Shown one piece after another: positions 1 to 43,511 of a stretch of DNA of 43,511 bases. Numbering within the stretch: position 1 is the stretch's first letter; the number at the start of each line of letters is the position of its first letter. Location: the IMG/VR virus record IMGVR_UViG_3300043178_000071, positions 1 to 43,511 of that record. One strand, written 5' to 3'. The translations under genes were made by a program, and so were the position numbers. The notes under the pieces are model-generated. The model saw only the letters and a list, made by a program, of their open reading frames with translations, was not told the origin of the DNA and ran no database searches. Source of the stretch: a virus.

Positions 1-603
1 TCAGTGGCCGATTGACAAACTGCGGAACGAGACACCCGAGCAGCGGAGGTAGATCGCGTGATTGCGTATCTCGGCAGCGACCAACTGAAGCAGGATTTCC
101 TCGCACAGGTCGCTCTACACGAACAGGCGGATGCGTTCGTCAAGGGCACCTACGGGAAAATGATGGATGGGCAGTTCCGTGGTTGCGCGGTTGGATGCTC
201 GCTGCACAGCCTGAATCTGATGAATGGCAAGCCGCCGCTGTATGACACGTCCGTCCATGCACGATACGAGGCCGAATTGGGGCTGCCCGCATGGCTGGCG
301 TGGCTCCAAGATTACCTCTTCGAGGCGCTGCCTGATGCGGCGGCGGCGACATGGCCGCGGCGATTCGCGGAGGCGGTGCCGGTGGGGGCGGTGATTGATC
401 AGCGGGCGCTGGCGCGGGTGCTGGTGTGGATCTTGACCGATGCCGAGTGGGGCATGGCGCGCACCACGGAGCGGGCGGATGTGCGGGAGTGGTGCCAGAC
501 GATCGCGGCATATATCGCGGCGGACGCGACGGGATCGGCCACGGCCGACCACCGGGAGGCAGCCGCGAGGGCCGCGAGGGCCGCGAGGGCGGCGTGGGAC
601 GCG
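1..603. repeat. Terminal direct repeat, copy 1. The window is one 42,908-bp genome unit plus a 603-bp overlap
   Basis: Bases 1-603 recur at 42909-43511 (offset 42908) in every stretch I compared. ORFs 12..245 and 42920..43153 give identical peptides. Confidence 0.95.
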
Positions 604-798
604 TGGGACGCGTGGGACGCGTGGGACGCGTGGGACGCGAGGGCCGCGTGGGCCGCGAGGGCCACGTGGGCCGCGAGGGCGGCGAGGGCGGCGAGGGCCA
701 CGTGGGACGCGTGGCCCACGTGGGCCGCGAGGGCCGCGTGGATCGTGGCGCTCTCTGAATATGTGCTGACGGTGCTCCGCGAGGCTCCACGCGCATAG
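58..798 (+). CDS. Hypothetical protein: ~168-aa N-terminal domain followed by 20 tripeptide repeats (A/D/P)-(A/T)-(R/W)
   Basis: GTG start and a 246-aa ORF. The C-terminus reads [36 protein letters not shown]... Third codon positions are G/C-rich, like other genes here. Confidence 0.6.
562..741 (+). repeat. Tandem array of 20 x 9 bp (gccgcgagg / gacgcgtgg / gccacgtgg variants), in frame within CDS 58..798
   Basis: Units counted directly from 562. Every unit is three codons. Confidence 0.9.
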
Positions 799-3567: not shown

Positions 3568-3824
3568 GCCTGACGGATCGGGTCGTCGCGTATTTCCGCG
3601 CGCATCCCGGCGAGTGGATTGACGGCCGCGTGCTGGCGACGGTCGGCGGGGCCTATGCGTGGCGTAGCAGAGTGTCAGATGCACGCCGGCAAGGGTTGGA
3701 CATCGAGAACCGCACGCGGCGGGTGCGGAACGGGCTGACGTCCTGGACGGTGAGCGAGTATCGGTATCGGTCTGGGGCGGTTGAGCAGGCGGCGGCGCCG
3801 CTTGAGGACCAGGCGCCAGCGTGA
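3564..3824 (+). CDS. Small putative winged-helix DNA-binding protein
   Basis: GTG 3564 overlaps the stop of the upstream gene (GTGA). The peptide reads [45 protein letters not shown]. The fold call is a pattern impression only. Confidence 0.55.
   Translation: MSLTDRVVAYFRAHPGEWIDGRVLATVGGAYAWRSRVSDARRQGLDIENRTRRVRNGLTSWTVSEYRYRSGAVEQAAAPLEDQAPA
3797..3814. repeat. 18-bp direct repeat gccgcttgaggaccaggc, copy 1 (3' end of the wHTH gene)
   Basis: The exact 18-mer recurs at 4026..4043, and ttgagc precedes both copies. Confidence 0.9.
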
Positions 3825-4009
3825 AGCCCTACTACGAGCACGGTGGGATCACGATCTATCACGGGGATTGCTTCGAGATCCTCCACGACCTGCGAGATGT
3901 GGGTGCGGTTCTGACTGACCCGCCGTACTCAAGTGGGGGGGCATTTCGTGGAGATCGCATGGTGTCTACACTCAGCAGGAGATCGCATGGTGTCTACACT
4001 CAGCAATGA
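3821..4009 (+). pseudogene. 5' fragment of a DPPY-type (N6A/N4C) DNA methyltransferase gene, truncated after ~46 codons
   Basis: MKPYYEHGGITIYHGDCFEILHDLRDVGAVLTDPPYSSGG is a typical MTase N-terminus with motif IV. The frame then enters a 28-bp tandem duplication and stops. No motif I or C-terminal part lies downstream. Confidence 0.7.
3951..4005. repeat. Tandem duplication, 2 x 27 nt (gagatcgcatggtgtctacactcagca) with a 28-bp period
   Basis: Copies lie at 3951..3977 and 3979..4005, separated by a single g. Confidence 0.9.
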
Positions 4010-4061: not shown

Positions 4062-4325
4062 ATGGGCATGAGGAAGATTGTCGAGGACGTGAGTGGTGAG
4101 GGGCTGGAGAAACTCCTCGGTGCGCGGGTCACGCTGTTCTGCGTGAACTACATTTACACCGGGAAACTGGTGGGTGTGGGCGCGACGTGCGTGCTCTTGG
4201 ACGACCCGGCCATTGTGTACGACACGGGACCATTCAGCGAGAAGGACTGGAAGAACGCGGAGTCGTTGCCGAACAGCATCTATGTGATGCTATCGGCGGT
4301 GGAAGCGTGCGGAGTGGTCAAGTGA
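4062..4325 (+). CDS. Hypothetical 87-aa protein, possibly a small Sm/Hfq-like beta-barrel
   Basis: Third codon positions are G/C-rich. The segment ARVTLFCVNYIYTGKLVGVGATCVLLDDPAIVY loosely resembles the Hfq Sm1 region ([25 protein letters not shown]...VY). Confidence 0.6.
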   Translation: MGMRKIVEDVSGEGLEKLLGARVTLFCVNYIYTGKLVGVGATCVLLDDPAIVYDTGPFSEKDWKNAESLPNSIYVMLSAVEACGVVK

Positions 4326-4360
4326 TTCGCGGACAACGGCAACGGTGGGCGTGGGTGGAG

Positions 4361-4540
4361 TCGGGGTGGTCGCGGGTGGGGTCGCGGTCGTGGTCGCGGG
4401 CGGGGTCGCGGTTGTGGTCGCGGTCGCGGTCGTGGTCGGGGTCGGGGTCGATGGCGTGGTCGGTGTTGGGGTTGTGGTCGTGGTCGCGGGCGGGGTCGTG
4501 GTCGCGGGCGGGGTCGTGGTCGCGGTCGCGGTCGCGGGCG
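4361..4540. repeat. Microsatellite of ~30 hexamers (N-G-G-T-C-G), almost free of adenine on the + strand
   Basis: Read directly from the sequence. The 18-bp super-unit gtggtcgcgggcggggtc occurs at 4390, 4480 and 4498. Only two A residues (4359, 4451) occur between 4343 and 4545. Confidence 0.9.
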
Positions 4541-4542
4541 TG

Positions 4543-4572
4543 TTGACATCGCGCCCCGCGAACGGGTAAAGT
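4543..4572 (+). promoter_or_regulatory. Sigma70-type promoter: TTGACA, 18-nt spacer, TAAAGT
   Basis: A perfect -35 lies at 4543..4548 and a -10-like TAAAGT at 4567..4572. The site is intergenic, directly after the hexamer array. Confidence 0.55.
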
Positions 4573-4578
4573 GCGGGG

Positions 4579-4965
4579 TGAAAGGTGACGGCCCGCAGGG
4601 ATGGTGAGTCCCTGCCGGTCCATGCGATTCGTGAGGGGAACGAATCAGGTGCAGGCCATTTCCAGGCCGTCGCATCGATTCTACCCTATCTACCCTCCCT
4701 CACACAATCGGTCAACCTGCGCGGGGCGCTGGGAGCCAAGCTGACGCCACTGGGGCGTCCCGTGGTACGGCCATGACCAGGACTGCACCATGGCACCGTG
4801 GAGCCGAAGGGCCAGAGCGGGCAGGGGACGCCGTGCAGCGGCGGACGACAGTCTGGCCCGACCCGTGCCGCGCTGTCACGCGATGCATGGGGCCACGAAC
4901 GGGCGACGGCCACGGGCTGACGACTTCGTTGTGGTCACGGCTGCCCCTCTTTAGGGGAAGCCTGT
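4579..4965 (+). ncRNA. Candidate structured non-coding RNA or long 5' leader (class unknown)
   Basis: It lies downstream of the consensus promoter, and no ORF here has genome-typical codon bias. Several perfect hairpins and a 32-nt G-free CU-rich stretch are present, with a strong terminal hairpin at 4939..4962. The ends are approximate. Confidence 0.35.
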
Positions 4966-5004
4966 GCCTCGTGGGCTCTGGCGCTGGGCTGATAGGGGGA
5001 GGCG

Positions 5005-5385
5005 ATGGGGGGGATAGAGTTCCCGGTACGGGACGGTCAGTGGTGGACGCTCGCGCCGTCGCTGCAGGCGGAGCTGGAGCAGGATTATCCGGCCGTGTCC
5101 GTGGCGGCAGAACTCCGCAAGGCCCGCGCCTGGCTGGTCGCCAATCCTAGGCGTCGCAAGACGGCCCGCGGGATGCCTCGGTTTCTGGTCGGGTGGCTGA
5201 ATCGGGCGAATCGGGCGACGGGGATCCGGCGCGGGGATCGAGCGGTCATCATTGCGCCGCCGACGTGGGCCTGCCCTCACGATCCCTCCTGCCGGGAGGC
5301 GTATCGGTGTGCGCAGCGGCAGGAGCTCGGTGAAGCCCGCTGGCGTGAGCTGTTTCCGAGCTGGTTCACGCAGGCGGGCGGATGA
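5005..5385 (+). CDS. Hypothetical protein (126 aa)
   Basis: ATG preceded by GGGGGAGG at 4995..5002. The peptide contains ELRKARAWLVANPRRRKTARGMPRFLVGWLNRA, a motif style I associate with phage replication-organiser C-termini (unverified). Confidence 0.7.
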   Translation: MGGIEFPVRDGQWWTLAPSLQAELEQDYPAVSVAAELRKARAWLVANPRRRKTARGMPRFLVGWLNRANRATGIRRGDRAVIIAPPTWACPHDPSCREAYRCAQRQELGEARWRELFPSWFTQAGG

Positions 5386-5403
5386 AGCGTCGCAGGCGGG
5401 CGG

Positions 5404-6301
5404 ATGAGCGTCTACTACAACGAGATCGACCAATTCGCGGCGGCGTGGCTGCGGGCACTGATGCGGGCCGGAGAGATTCCCGAGGGCGAGGTCGATGAGC
5501 GGTCAATTGCCGATGTTTCCCCGGACGACGTCCGAGGCTTCCGCCAGTGCCACTGGTTCGCTGGCATTGGCGGGTGGGCCTACGCGCTTCGACTTGCCGG
5601 GTGGGGTGACGAGCCCATCTGGACCGGGTCCTGTCCCTGCCAGCCGTTCACGTTGGCGGGGAAAGGTGACGGCGAAGCCGATCCCCGCGATCTTTGGCCA
5701 GCGTGGGCACAGCTCATCCGCGAGTGCCGCCCTGTCGTCATCGCTGGTGAGCAAGTTGCGGCGGCGGCTCGGGGAATCTGGCTCGACCGTCTTTGTGCAG
5801 ACCTGGAAGGAATTGGCTACGCCGTCGGGGCGGGTGTATTGGGGGCACACAGCGTCGGGGCGCCGCACCTCCGGCAACGGCTCTGGTTCGTGGCGGACGC
5901 CGATGGCGAGCGACACCAGGGGCGCGCGGGTCGATACGCGGACCGGAGCGGACGGGATCCGGGGCGGGGCACACGCTAAATCTGCAGGATTACGTGAGGC
6001 AGGCATGGGTCACACCAATCGCGCGGGACTGGAAGGACAACGCCGGGATGGCCGAAACGGGCACGAACCCGGACGGGTCGGAGCGGACGCGGCTGGATCA
6101 GTTGCCGCGGCAGGCACATGGGGTGATCTCGTCTGGCTCCCCTGCCGAGACGGGAAAGCGCGGCCAACTCAACCCGGCCTTTTCCCGCTGGCTCATGGGG
6201 TATCCGCCCGCATGGGACGACTGTGCGGTTACGGCAATGCTATCGTGCCGCAGGTCGCGGCGGCGTTCCTCCAAGCCTACCGTGACGCGCGAGAGGGCTG
6301 A
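5404..6301 (+). pseudogene. Phage-type DNA cytosine-5 methyltransferase split over three reading frames (at least 2 frame disruptions)
   Basis: The frame of 5404 carries YNEID.., FAGIGG (I), PCQPF (IV), GEQV (VI) and PHLRQRLWFVA (VIII), then stops at 5979. The frame of 5793 carries LNLQDYVRQAWVTPIARDWKD...LNPAFSRWLMGYPPAWDDC. The frame of 5495 carries GYGNAIVPQVAAAFLQAY (X) and stops at 6301. Confidence 0.6.
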
Positions 6302-6622: not shown

Positions 6623-6856
6623 TCAGGGCGGATGCCATCGGGCGCGGGCGGCGGCGCGGGCACTGGCAATCCGGTCCTCGGGCGTCAGCCGAGCCGCGCG
6701 GGCTCGTCCACCGAGCGCGTGGACGCTGGGTCGCTCGTCCCCATAGGCGACGAGCGCGGCAATAAGCACGTCGCGCAGGTCAGTCCCGTCGCGGGTGGCG
6801 CGGGCCCGAGCCCGGCGCAGGACCGGGCCCGGGATGCCGTGCAGGCGGTAGTCCAT
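6623..6856 (-). CDS. Ribbon-helix-helix-like small DNA-binding protein with a basic C-terminal GG-ARAA-LTP-R..ARW motif
   Basis: The N-terminus MDYRLHGIPGPVLRRARARATRDGTDLRDVLIAALVAY has a strand-helix-helix pattern. The C-terminus reads GGRARAARLTPEDRIASARAAARARW. Confidence 0.6.
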   Translation of the reverse strand: MDYRLHGIPGPVLRRARARATRDGTDLRDVLIAALVAYGDERPSVHALGGRARAARLTPEDRIASARAAARARWHPP

Positions 6857-6867
6857 GCTGGGTCAGC

Positions 6868-7272
6868 TTACACGGCCGGTGCGGCCGGTGCGGCCGGGCG
6901 CGTGAGGAGCCTTGCGCCATCGTAGGATTCACCCGCGTCCATCAGGCGAACCATGGCCCTCACGCGCTCCATCGGCGGATGGGCGTGTCCAGCGGTGCCG
7001 TCGGCCTTGTGCCAGACCATCAGATACTGGCGGTCCCCACACTCCGATACCTCGTAGAGCCCAGGACGGAGGTGATAGGTATACGTCCGCGTGTAGCGCG
7101 CACGCCGGTAGGAGTCGCGCGTCACGGTGTCGGCGGCCACAAACTCGCGGGCGAGGCCGTACTCCTGACTCGATCCCGTGATCGCAGCCACATAGGCGCG
7201 CGCACCGTGCTTGCCGCTGTAGCCGATGCCCTGCTCGATCTGGAGCGTATAGGTGGTCGGCGTCTGCGTCAT
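6868..7272 (-). CDS. Hypothetical protein (134 aa), first gene of the leftward operon
   Basis: ATG preceded by AGGAGG (plus-strand cctcct at 7279..7284). It lies downstream of the consensus leftward promoter. Confidence 0.7.
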   Translation of the reverse strand: MTQTPTTYTLQIEQGIGYSGKHGARAYVAAITGSSQEYGLAREFVAADTVTRDSYRRARYTRTYTYHLRPGLYEVSECGDRQYLMVWHKADGTAGHAHPPMERVRAMVRLMDAGESYDGARLLTRPAAPAAPAV

Positions 7273-7319: not shown

Positions 7320-7349
7320 AGTATACGTGCTAGCAGGCATGCGTGTCAA
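7320..7349 (-). promoter_or_regulatory. Leftward sigma70-type promoter: TTGACA, 18-nt spacer, TATACT
   Basis: The minus strand reads TTGACA (7349->7344) and TATACT (7325->7320). The predicted start is ~40 nt upstream of the 6868..7272 ATG, with a GCGGGC/GCCCGC hairpin (7293..7308) in the leader. Confidence 0.65.
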
Positions 7350-21213: not shown

Positions 21214-22134
21214 ATGGCCCAGACACGAGGCACGTTTGACGCGCTGTACGACAATGTTGACAAGACCGTCGCCGGGATCATGAAGGCGCAGCTCGATGAG
21301 CTGCCCCGGATTTACCCGTCGATCTACAACATCAAGACCTCGGATCGGAAGTTCGAGCGGGTGGTCACCTATGTGCCGTTCTCGCAGACGGCCACGAAGC
21401 CGGAAGGCCAGCCGTATGCCTTCGAGAACATCCGGCAGGGGTTCACCAAGGACTTCACGCATACCGAGAATGGGCTCGGGTTCGAGGTAACCCAGACGGC
21501 CCTCGAGGACGATCCCGAGAACCTGCTGACGAAGGCCGGCCAGTGGCTGGCGTTCTCGGCCCGGTATCTGGAGGAACAGCGGGCGGCGAATCCGTTCAAC
21601 AACGGGTTCGGCAGCGAAACCACGCCGGATGGGGTGTCGCTGTTCAACACCGCGCATCTGCTGGCTGGCGGGGGCACGGCCCGCAACACGCTGGCGACCG
21701 CGGCCGACTTGTCGGCCACGTCCCTGACCACGGCGTTGATTGACCTCCAGACCCAGACGGTCGATGAAGCGGGGCATCTTGCCGCGCCGCTGAAGTCGAT
21801 CATTCTCTACGTGCCCCCGGCGCTGGAGTTCCTGGCGCACCGGCTCGTCAAGAGCGAACTGATGCCGGGATCGGCGGACAATGACCTGAACACGATCCGC
21901 ACACAGCGGACGTGGCGGGTGGTCGTCAATCCGCACCTGTCGGATAGCGACGCGTGGTTCCTCGTGTCGGGCACCAAGTCCATGCATGCCCTGACGTTCT
22001 ACCGGCGCACGCCGATCACGCTCGAACCGATGGACAAGGACGCGCGGACGGGGAATCGCATCTGGAAAGTGCGACACCGGTTCAGCGTCGGCGCGTGGGC
22101 GTGGCAGAACACCTACGGGTCGCCGGGCGCGTAG
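21214..22134 (+). CDS. Major capsid protein (HK97-fold type expected)
   Basis: It has the strongest SD in the window (AAAGGAG). At 306 aa it is followed by a strong hairpin, and its position and size are typical for an MCP. Confidence 0.8.
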   Translation: MAQTRGTFDALYDNVDKTVAGIMKAQLDELPRIYPSIYNIKTSDRKFERVVTYVPFSQTATKPEGQPYAFENIRQGFTKDFTHTENGLGFEVTQTALEDDPENLLTKAGQWLAFSARYLEEQRAANPFNNGFGSETTPDGVSLFNTAHLLAGGGTARNTLATAADLSATSLTTALIDLQTQTVDEAGHLAAPLKSIILYVPPALEFLAHRLVKSELMPGSADNDLNTIRTQRTWRVVVNPHLSDSDAWFLVSGTKSMHALTFYRRTPITLEPMDKDARTGNRIWKVRHRFSVGAWAWQNTYGSPGA

Positions 22135-22147
22135 GACGGCGCAGAAC

Positions 22148-22206
22148 GGGGTCGGGGTGCCTTCGGGTGGCCGCTCGCGTCACGGCTGCCCCGACCCACT
22201 TCTTGT
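22148..22206 (+). terminator. Compound stem-loop after the capsid gene (GGGTCGGGG...CCCCGACCC) followed by ACTTCTT
   Basis: A 9-bp outer stem (22149..22157 with 22189..22197) encloses a CC-UUCG-GG and a GCCG/CGGC hairpin. Confidence 0.5.
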
Positions 22207-42790: not shown

Positions 42791-42960
42791 CGTGGCTCCG
42801 TCGGCTCTGGCGCTGGTTGGTGGGCTCCCCGGCGGACGTGGTGAGCCCTGGGTGGGTGCGCGACCACGCGCGGCGGTCAGGCACGGTGGGCCTCGACGGG
42901 CCATCGATTCAGTGGCCGATTGACAAACTGCGGAACGAGACACCCGAGCAGCGGAGGTAG
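42787..42960 (+). CDS. Possible 57-aa ORF spanning the start of the terminal repeat
   Basis: ATGA overlap with the VRR-NUC stop. Its 3' end is duplicated at 1..52. Confidence 0.35.
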   Translation: MTWLRRLWRWLVGSPADVVSPGWVRDHARRSGTVGLDGPSIQWPIDKLRNETPEQRR

Positions 42961-43511
42961 ATCGCGTGATTGCGTATCTCGGCAGCGACCAACTGAAGCA
43001 GGATTTCCTCGCACAGGTCGCTCTACACGAACAGGCGGATGCGTTCGTCAAGGGCACCTACGGGAAAATGATGGATGGGCAGTTCCGTGGTTGCGCGGTT
43101 GGATGCTCGCTGCACAGCCTGAATCTGATGAATGGCAAGCCGCCGCTGTATGACACGTCCGTCCATGCACGATACGAGGCCGAATTGGGGCTGCCCGCAT
43201 GGCTGGCGTGGCTCCAAGATTACCTCTTCGAGGCGCTGCCTGATGCGGCGGCGGCGACATGGCCGCGGCGATTCGCGGAGGCGGTGCCGGTGGGGGCGGT
43301 GATTGATCAGCGGGCGCTGGCGCGGGTGCTGGTGTGGATCTTGACCGATGCCGAGTGGGGCATGGCGCGCACCACGGAGCGGGCGGATGTGCGGGAGTGG
43401 TGCCAGACGATCGCGGCATATATCGCGGCGGACGCGACGGGATCGGCCACGGCCGACCACCGGGAGGCAGCCGCGAGGGCCGCGAGGGCCGCGAGGGCGG
43501 CGTGGGACGCG
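42909..43511. repeat. Terminal direct repeat, copy 2 (same as 1..603)
   Basis: Same as copy 1. It ends at the window edge inside the 9-bp tandem array. Confidence 0.95.
42966..43511 (+). CDS. Duplicate 5' part of the tripeptide-repeat gene (same as 58..603), cut by the window end
   Basis: It lies inside the terminal overlap. Confidence 0.6.
   Translation, partial: MIAYLGSDQLKQDFLAQVALHEQADAFVKGTYGKMMDGQFRGCAVGCSLHSLNLMNGKPPLYDTSVHARYEAELGLPAWLAWLQDYLFEALPDAAAATWPRRFAEAVPVGAVIDQRALARVLVWILTDAEWGMARTTERADVREWCQTIAAYIAADATGSATADHREAAARAARAARAAWDA

Follow-up and report, generated by a model that had tools for sequence, protein, structure and literature searches.

A non-coding spacer between two genes of an uncultivated phage: a candidate lineage-specific 5' leader

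Introduction

Leaders that sequester the Shine-Dalgarno (SD) sequence, such as translational operators, RNA thermometers and riboswitch expression platforms, set a pyrimidine-rich anti-SD stretch against the SD sequence and initiation codon of the downstream gene. A comparable arrangement occurs in the DNA described here, IMG/VR record IMGVR_UViG_3300043178_000071, whose full 43,511 nt were analysed and are called the window: upstream of a gene at 5005..5385 (gene 5005), a CU-rich tract in a non-coding gap faces the SD sequence and start codon, and the predicted fold pairs them. In contrast to the described leaders, the two partners are separated by 290 nt, no recognisable ligand-binding or sensor domain is present, and no anti-anti-SD helix was identified; Rfam did not assign the gap to any named SD-sequestering family.

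Rho-dependent attenuators (rut sites) likewise comprise long untranslated RNA with a C-rich, G-poor segment and many YC dinucleotides, a composition that Rho prefers. The gap holds such a segment (C/G ratio 2.31), a likeness of composition alone, whereas the structure predicted for its flanks would disfavour the loading of Rho. The cis-acting antitermination RNAs of the HK022 put type, which we take to be compact multi-hairpin domains directly downstream of an early-region promoter, are placed similarly; they presumably consist of two adjacent stem-loops, whereas the fold predicted here is a three-way junction. Phage proteins that combine an N-terminal DUF1376, DUF6291 or HTH_36 domain with a C-terminal domain containing RKTARGMPRF bear on the locus through gene 5005, which encodes the C-terminal domain. 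The gap corresponds to the N-terminal half of these proteins in position, rough length and frame, but has four in-frame stops and no detectable N-terminal similarity.

An initial annotation had read the region as a highly structured, ORF-poor transcript, either a stand-alone RNA or a leader that gates translation of gene 5005. All its coordinates and sequences held when positions 4200..5500 were re-read and the helices were checked by script. As a candidate, the gap is an ordinary cis-acting leader, confined to one uncultivated phage.

Results

Extent and coding potential of the gap

The gap and its borders are defined by the following features.

4062..4325, plus strand: gene whose 87-aa product is predicted to adopt an Sm/LSm fold, the first of a conserved gene pair
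4322..4546, plus strand: gene for a 74-aa Ser-[Gly/Arg/Trp] repeat protein, its DNA being a period-6 tandem array
4543..4572, plus strand: sigma-70-type promoter-like site with -35 hexamer TTGACA at 4543..4548 (6/6 matches), an 18-nt spacer and -10 hexamer TAAAGT at 4567..4572 (4/6 matches)
5005..5385, plus strand: gene for a 126-aa protein whose residues 3-72 correspond to a domain at the C-terminus of larger phage proteins

Because the TGA stop of the repeat gene falls inside the -35 hexamer, the non-coding stretch runs from 4547 to 5004 (458 nt), with a real gene on either side. Its GC content is 0.68, in a genome of 66% GC. ORFs in the gap had been described as poorer in third-position G/C than genes, and this was reproduced (0.64-0.73 versus 0.67-0.87 for the training genes, mostly at least 0.77). 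Their codon log-likelihood did not exceed 0.08 per codon, compared with 0.38 +/- 0.15 for genes. The highest score in the gap (+0.08) belonged to ORF 4585..4776, encoding 63 aa, whose stop overlaps the ATG at 4773 (ATGA); ORF 4773..5150, which starts there, scored -0.34 and overlaps gene 5005 out of frame. A search of 1.84 billion representative proteins with the 63-aa product returned no real homolog, its two matches being translations of eukaryotic satellite DNA. Pfam and PHROG searches with the ORFs and frames of the gap were empty, and six-frame tblastn and phmmer comparisons of the gap with related loci gave nothing beyond chance. A second, independent assembly of the same phage is identical across the region, and its gene caller leaves the gap empty. 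By every test run, 4547..5004 is non-coding.

ORF 4585..4776 and gene 5005 lie in one shared reading frame, in which the 267 codons from 4585 to 5385 include four stops. Across 4585..5004 this frame had the best codon score (-0.01, against a shuffle null of -0.23 +/- 0.10), corresponding to P = 0.008 for the one frame and to about 0.05 after correction for six frames. A minus-strand ORF at 4280..4675, encoding a proline/arginine repeat, was considered as a gene and rejected (codon score -0.66, frame not conserved). The gap was also considered as a mobile element or duplicated sequence; neither further copies in the window nor terminal repeats were found, and this reading was dropped as well. 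Other ORF-poor stretches, of 400-650 nt, occur in the genome.

Architecture of the homologs of gene 5005

The protein of gene 5005 carries the RKTARGMPRF core within its first ~70 residues, followed by a CPHxPxC motif. It was modelled by AlphaFold2 with a pLDDT of 81.5; the model had no match in a PDB fold search, and the protein has no family annotation. Among 20 related viral loci, 18 have this domain as the C-terminal end of an ORF of 188-405 aa, with about 110-270 residues in front of it; identity to the 5005 protein is 36-71%. These N-terminal parts differ in type, with individual matches to DUF1376, DUF6291 and HTH_36-type winged helices. Proteins with DUF1376 or winged-helix domains presumably resemble prophage replication proteins and, we assume, are located where prophages encode replication-organizer proteins.

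Since the 5005 protein matches the C-terminal domain only, the gap is at the position of the relatives' N-terminal domain and linker. Position, length (about 140 codons) and frame (that of gene 5005) are those expected of a pseudogene of this half. Residual amino-acid similarity to the N-terminal domains was not found: in phmmer comparisons of 20 relatives with the six-frame translation of the gap no score exceeded 1.7 bits, and Pfam revealed no remnant of an N-terminal domain in the plus-strand frames. As to whether conservation is RNA-like (covariation) or codon-like, the available comparison points away from an RNA: the equivalent position in relatives is the N-terminal coding half of the same gene.

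Relatives of gene 5005 that stand alone vary in what precedes them. In locus L002 an ORF-poor stretch of about 400 nt (folding z = -2.2) lies upstream, with a 10-bp helix adjoining the SD sequence; in L187 there is a 305-nt upstream stretch without a called gene, and L186 and L188 have no long upstream gap. Gene decay is visible near the gap. ORF 3821..4009, which ends in a tandem duplication of 28 bp, is an N-terminal fragment of a DPPY methylase; the coding sequence of a C5 methylase is divided between two frames, whereas a relative (L192) has an intact ORF of 393 aa.

A promoter-like site at the upstream edge

The initial annotation had placed a consensus-type promoter at the 5' edge of the stretch. 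Sites were assessed as sigma-70-type by their -35 and -10 hexamers at a spacing of 16-18 nt, and 4543..4572 passed with 10 of 12 consensus matches and a perfect -35 hexamer. On both strands of the 43.5 kb, two sites reached 10 or more of the 12 matches, versus 0.7 expected, both outside confident coding sequence; the second, at 7349..7320 on the minus strand, precedes two genes of that strand, 6868..7272 and 6623..6856. A weak -10 hexamer and the 18-nt spacer count against the 4543..4572 promoter, which is plausible and would start transcription near 4580.

Two relatives (L035 and L094) have promoters with 12 of 12 matches at the same spot, after the repeat gene. No general enrichment of promoters after the repeat gene was seen among the relatives, and in most of them the next gene follows it directly. 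Promoter and gap are both traits of this lineage.

Predicted structure of the transcript

Downstream of the promoter-like site, the gap was divided into the following parts.

4585..4673, plus strand: 5' domain, a predicted three-way junction closed by helix 4585-4593/4665-4673 in the minimum free energy (MFE) fold
4678..4709, plus strand: G-free, CU-rich tract of 32 nt with a duplicated CUACCCU, containing CCUCC
4710..4859, plus strand: middle part with hairpins 4743-4759 and 4809-4859, folding at chance
4860..4970, plus strand: 3' domain of three adjacent hairpins, z = -2.5 to -3.2
4995..5002, plus strand: SD sequence of gene 5005, GGGGGAGG, whose partner in the MFE fold is 4694..4701

All the helices listed in the initial annotation as perfect are fully Watson-Crick except 4939-4948/4953-4962, in which 9 of 10 positions pair and one is a G.A mismatch. 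The arm at 4573-4577 is upstream of the predicted start (~4580) and would therefore be absent from a transcript of the 4543..4572 promoter. A junction closed by AUGC/GCAU had also been proposed; its helices exist, but the MFE fold omits both AUGC/GCAU and the GGCC hairpin. Within the closing helix of the 5' domain it forms hairpins 4595-4615 and 4617-4657, the latter with GAUUCG/CGAAUC as inner stem.

The description of the transcript as highly structured applies to its first ~95 nt and its last ~110 nt; the middle folds at chance, and the opposite strand does equally well. The 5' domain (MFE -46.3 kcal/mol) had z = -3.3, determined over 4579..4680, and z = -3.2 on the opposite strand. Two pieces of 4710..4865 gave z = +0.3 and -0.7. 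The whole 432 nt gave z = -2.0 on the plus strand and -2.15 as the reverse complement. Of arbitrary 102-nt segments of the genome, 0.3% reach z = -3, a comparison that flatters the target segments because they were picked knowing the structure.

The last hairpin of the 3' domain, 4939-4962, has 9 of 10 base pairs and the loop CUUU, and is directly followed by UGUGCCUCG without a U tract. Small RNAs usually end at an intrinsic terminator, a GC-rich hairpin followed by a U tract. A terminator scan across 4543..5004 found no site, so that a defined 3' end of this type was not seen. The proposal of a stand-alone RNA of ~390 nt was not upheld, as there is no terminator-like end and hairpin 4939-4962 lacks a U tract.

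Complementarity of the CU tract to the ribosome site

Re-reading confirmed the 32-nt G-free stretch at 4678..4709, which is the longest G-free run in the window (runner-up, 21 nt). As had been noted, CCUCCCUC at 4694..4701 can pair with GGGGGAGG at 4995..5002 through seven Watson-Crick pairs and one G-U pair. The complementarity extends further than initially described: CCCUAUC (4684..4690) pairs in addition with GAUGGGG (5004..5010), giving a duplex of 15 bp in total across the SD sequence and AUG of gene 5005. This duplex is present in the MFE fold despite the 290 nt between its partners, and its energy of -26.8 kcal/mol corresponds to P = 0.04 against dinucleotide-shuffled upstream sequence and to P = 0.01 against other segments of the genome, which is marginal.

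Occlusion of the ribosome site was compared among 42 genes, each folded with 426 nt of upstream sequence. The site of gene 5005 had a mean pairing probability of 0.78 and ranked fourth, indicating that predicted occlusion is common in a genome of 66% GC; for long-range pairing it ranked first, with several genes close behind. Of the claim that the leader gates translation of gene 5005, the complementarity between CU tract and ribosome site thus stands, while the predicted occlusion is unexceptional.

In addition, the G-free tract forms the core of a 78-nt segment (4643..4720) that is rich in C and poor in G and has the second-highest C/G ratio among all 78-nt segments of the strand. The tract itself contains 11 YC dinucleotides. 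In composition, 4643..4720 therefore qualifies as a candidate rut site, being C-rich, G-poor and part of a predicted untranslated RNA.

Searches for RNA families and for homologs of the gap

The initial annotation had found no riboswitch or RNA family to match, and this was borne out by an Rfam scan of the whole window, which gave no match at gathering thresholds. A permissive scan of 4300..5100 (up to E = 10) returned only a chance microRNA match at E = 8.8, and ARAGORN found no tRNA or tmRNA. Compared with GenBank phages, the gap had no match, only the downstream methylase being in common. Searches of up to 202 related loci (1.3 Mb) by blastn, nhmmer and six-frame comparison yielded matches at chance level, exact-pattern scans of metagenome and viral contig collections, including IMG/VR, yielded nothing, and a covariance model of the 5' domain found only itself in 633 kb of related loci. 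The gap is thus known from this one phage, no homolog having turned up in the scanned collections or among the related loci (1.3 Mb).

None of the relatives in the collections is near enough to carry the gap. The nearest identities are 47% for the 5005 protein (best at comparable coverage), 75% for the Sm-like protein, about 50% for the SNF2 protein and, for the large terminase, 68% among viral contigs and 55% among genomes. Evidence for a functional RNA is weak, and the searches run supported neither a new RNA class nor selection on structure.

The upstream gene pair

The 87-aa protein encoded at 4062..4325 has 187 homologs at 60-75% identity, which carry no family annotation. Its AlphaFold2 model (pLDDT 89.5) found only Sm/LSm structures among its top 50 PDB matches, and an Sm/LSm fold is predicted with confidence.

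The gene behind it, 4322..4546, has a GTG start overlapping the Sm-like gene's stop codon; at the DNA level, its tandem repeat extends over 4345..4545. A strictly strand-specific period-6 array directly follows the Sm-like gene in 76 of 80 loci, at GC contents of 32% to 66%. The array DNA is of class GGTCNN in 62 loci and of class GGAGCN in 11; either class reads in one frame as Ser-NGG, that is, TCN or AGC followed by a codon for Gly, Arg or Trp. The start codon of the repeat ORF overlaps the stop of the gene before it (ATGA, GTGA or TAATG), and the ORF is conserved in about 70 related loci together with a basic N-terminal motif, xIRGxKQKW/Y. On this comparative reading the upstream "repeat array" is a real gene, with a codon score of 0.14. 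We also considered the array as iterons, as an operator or as RNA repeats bound by the Sm-like protein; both classes encode Ser-NGG and the N-terminal motif is conserved, and these readings were rejected. At the DNA level the repeat gene resembles a tandem repeat, and it breaks assemblies.

Discussion

The reading that we prefer, tentatively, is that the gap acts as a 5' leader, specific to this lineage, for gene 5005 and the methylase genes that follow it, is transcribed from an internal promoter and probably derives from a lost N-terminal half. A spacer that is confined to one phage and located where relatives have the front half of a gene is most likely an ordinary lineage-specific leader and not a new RNA class. 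As it takes the place of the relatives' N-terminal DNA-binding domain and linker, it is most likely what remained after loss or decay of that half. An internal promoter of the sigma-70 type, situated on the stop codon of the preceding gene, would transcribe the spacer, which may itself have arisen by gene decay. Any regulation would probably be simple and in cis. Pairing of the CU tract at 4684..4701 with the SD sequence and AUG could reduce translation of gene 5005; an RNA that is long, untranslated, C-rich and G-poor would also offer the termination factor Rho a natural place to load, with a possible effect on termination. The leader thus possibly exerts a modest effect by occluding the ribosome site or by loading Rho, as far as base pairing and composition suggest.

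It is possible, if doubtful, that the gap has no function at all, being a decayed N-terminal gene half or filler DNA that is transcribed by read-through from the upstream operon, with helices and complementarity of the kind usual at 66% GC. A z of only -2 for the whole region, with the opposite strand alike, a middle third that folds at chance and a pairing probability at the ribosome site similar to that of many genes all fit such a remnant, as do the lack of a gap homolog in the collections searched, the faint codon bias in the frame of gene 5005, the visibly decayed neighbouring genes and the further ORF-poor stretches of 400-650 nt in the genome. It does not account as readily for a perfect -35 hexamer exactly at the gene end, for the fact that the longest G-free run of the window lies here and is complementary to a ribosome site 290 nt away, or for two terminal domains that fold better than 99% of genome windows. 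The same promoter-like site, now at the 5' end of a small RNA of ~380 nt extending from ~4580 to hairpin 4939-4962, and the structured 5' and 3' domains flanking an unpaired G-free tract with CCUCC, would suit an RNA whose CU tract imitates the 16S rRNA 3' end and, acting in trans, base-pairs with phage or host SD sequences. We regard this as unlikely: the intrinsic-terminator signature is absent (no U tract, and an empty terminator scan), there is no Rfam match and no homolog in the collections searched, and the best complementary target is the ribosome site of the adjacent gene itself, which fits action in cis. Still less probable is an undescribed structured phage RNA in which the junction and the 3' hairpins would present the G-free tract as a mimic of the 16S tail and, on a signal or through a phage protein, would either switch translation of gene 5005, presumably linked to replication, or titrate SD sequences in trans.

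Two further readings do not involve a regulatory RNA. We give little credence to one or more orphan genes for small proteins, the main candidate being the 63-aa ORF 4585..4776. Its codon score is the highest in the gap, and the neighbouring repeat gene, which is real, reaches just 0.14; its ATGA overlap at 4773 is of a type typical of coupled genes. Against this, it has no true homolog among the 1.84 billion representative proteins and no Pfam or PHROG match, its GTG start, 5 nt away from where transcription is predicted to begin, has no usable SD sequence in that transcript, and its partner 4773..5150 has a negative codon score and overlaps gene 5005 out of frame. A DNA-level element, for example a replication origin beside the remains of a replication-organizer-like gene, is the most improbable of the readings considered. 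Origins are often in or beside initiator genes, the homologs of gene 5005 have N-terminal domains of the winged-helix or DUF1376 type, and the region is non-coding; yet it has no iterons and no AT-rich stretch (GC 0.68), just short two-copy repeats, and the cumulative GC skew shows no inflection at the gap.

If the leader that we tentatively favour is functional, a single uncultivated phage would supply a further example of a long 5' leader by which translation of an early gene is damped. The locus also carries a caution, in that many perfect helices and an anti-SD match are readily found in GC-rich genomes, and it illustrates how an "ORF-poor gap" can be explained as the lost half of a gene once the homologs of a flanking gene are compared in their architecture. 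More noteworthy than the gap is the pair of Sm-like and Ser-X repeat proteins beside it: the Sm-like protein is highly conserved and without annotation and, as the overlapping reading frames suggest, is translationally coupled to the repeat protein.

Genome ends and repeats

Positions 1..603 of the window are repeated exactly at 42909..43511; because the same 603 bases stand at both ends, the contig represents a 42,908-bp genome that is either closed into a circle or terminally redundant. Several features of this genome are listed below.

Features of the window
562..741: 9-bp repeat in 20 copies, inside ORF 58..798
3821..4009: DPPY-motif DNA methylase, N-terminal fragment only, 62-aa ORF
4062..4546, plus strand: gene pair encoding an Sm-like and a Ser-X repeat protein, conserved in phages but unannotated; also in related loci L022-L096 and L179-L185
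5404..6301: C5 cytosine methylase, split over two reading frames
7349..7320, minus strand: promoter-like site TTGACA-18-TATACT, 11 of 12 matches

Near the left end, the 9-bp repeat encodes the tripeptide repeats AAR/AAW/DAW.

Promoter-like sites and folded stretches

Besides 4543..4572, the site at 7349..7320 is the sole strong promoter-like site in the window. It lies in the region that separates the leftward gene block from the rightward one, likely a regulatory switch region, and is directed toward the minus-strand genes 6868..7272 and 6623..6856. The strongest folding in a genome-wide sample of 102-nt windows was found at 22051..22152 (z = -3.2), which takes in the final part of ORF 21214..22134 together with the first bases of the 89-nt intergenic spacer preceding ORF 22224.

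Among the stand-alone homologs of gene 5005, the one in the related locus L002 gave the longest match to the query. Upstream of it, too, about 400 nt are poor in ORFs (L002 2607..3003; folding z = -2.2); they contain a 10-bp helix, CCGACACCTT/AAGGTGTCGG, whose end adjoins the Shine-Dalgarno sequence. No sequence similarity was found between L002 2607..3003 and the non-coding gap upstream of gene 5005 in the window.

Methylase fragments flanking the gap region

At the end of the truncated DPPY methylase ORF, 28 bp are perfectly duplicated in tandem (3950..4005). The truncation reflects decay of the gene or else an artefact of assembly. The C5 methylase comprises an N-terminal part at 5404..5979 and a C-terminal motif, GNAIVP, within 6005..6301; in the relative L192 it is a single intact ORF of 393 aa. 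The split means that the gene is frameshifted, is a pseudogene or carries a sequencing error.

A conserved Sm-like and Ser-X repeat gene pair

The first gene of the pair encodes a protein of 85-87 aa, confidently predicted to adopt an Sm/LSm fold, with 60-75% identity between phages spanning 32-66% GC. The Ser-X repeat gene is translationally coupled to the Sm-like gene, its start codon lying on the stop codon of the latter. The Ser-X product (40-90 aa) opens with a basic motif, xIRGxKQKW/Y, and continues as (Ser-[Gly/Arg/Trp])n. At the DNA level its gene resembles a strand-specific tandem array of period 6, of which there are two classes, GGTCNN and GGAGCN, with Ser-NGG read from both. Neither protein had a match in Pfam, PHROG or NCBIfam, and the Sm-like gene is present, unannotated, in only one of 50,697 GenBank phage records.

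Many metagenomic contigs end inside the Ser-X repeat gene (L025, L029, L040, L047, L054, L062, L096, L178 and others), as do the Logan assemblies of the window's own phage. The array appears to break short-read assemblies, and the Ser-X repeat gene is therefore likely to be under-represented in assemblies.
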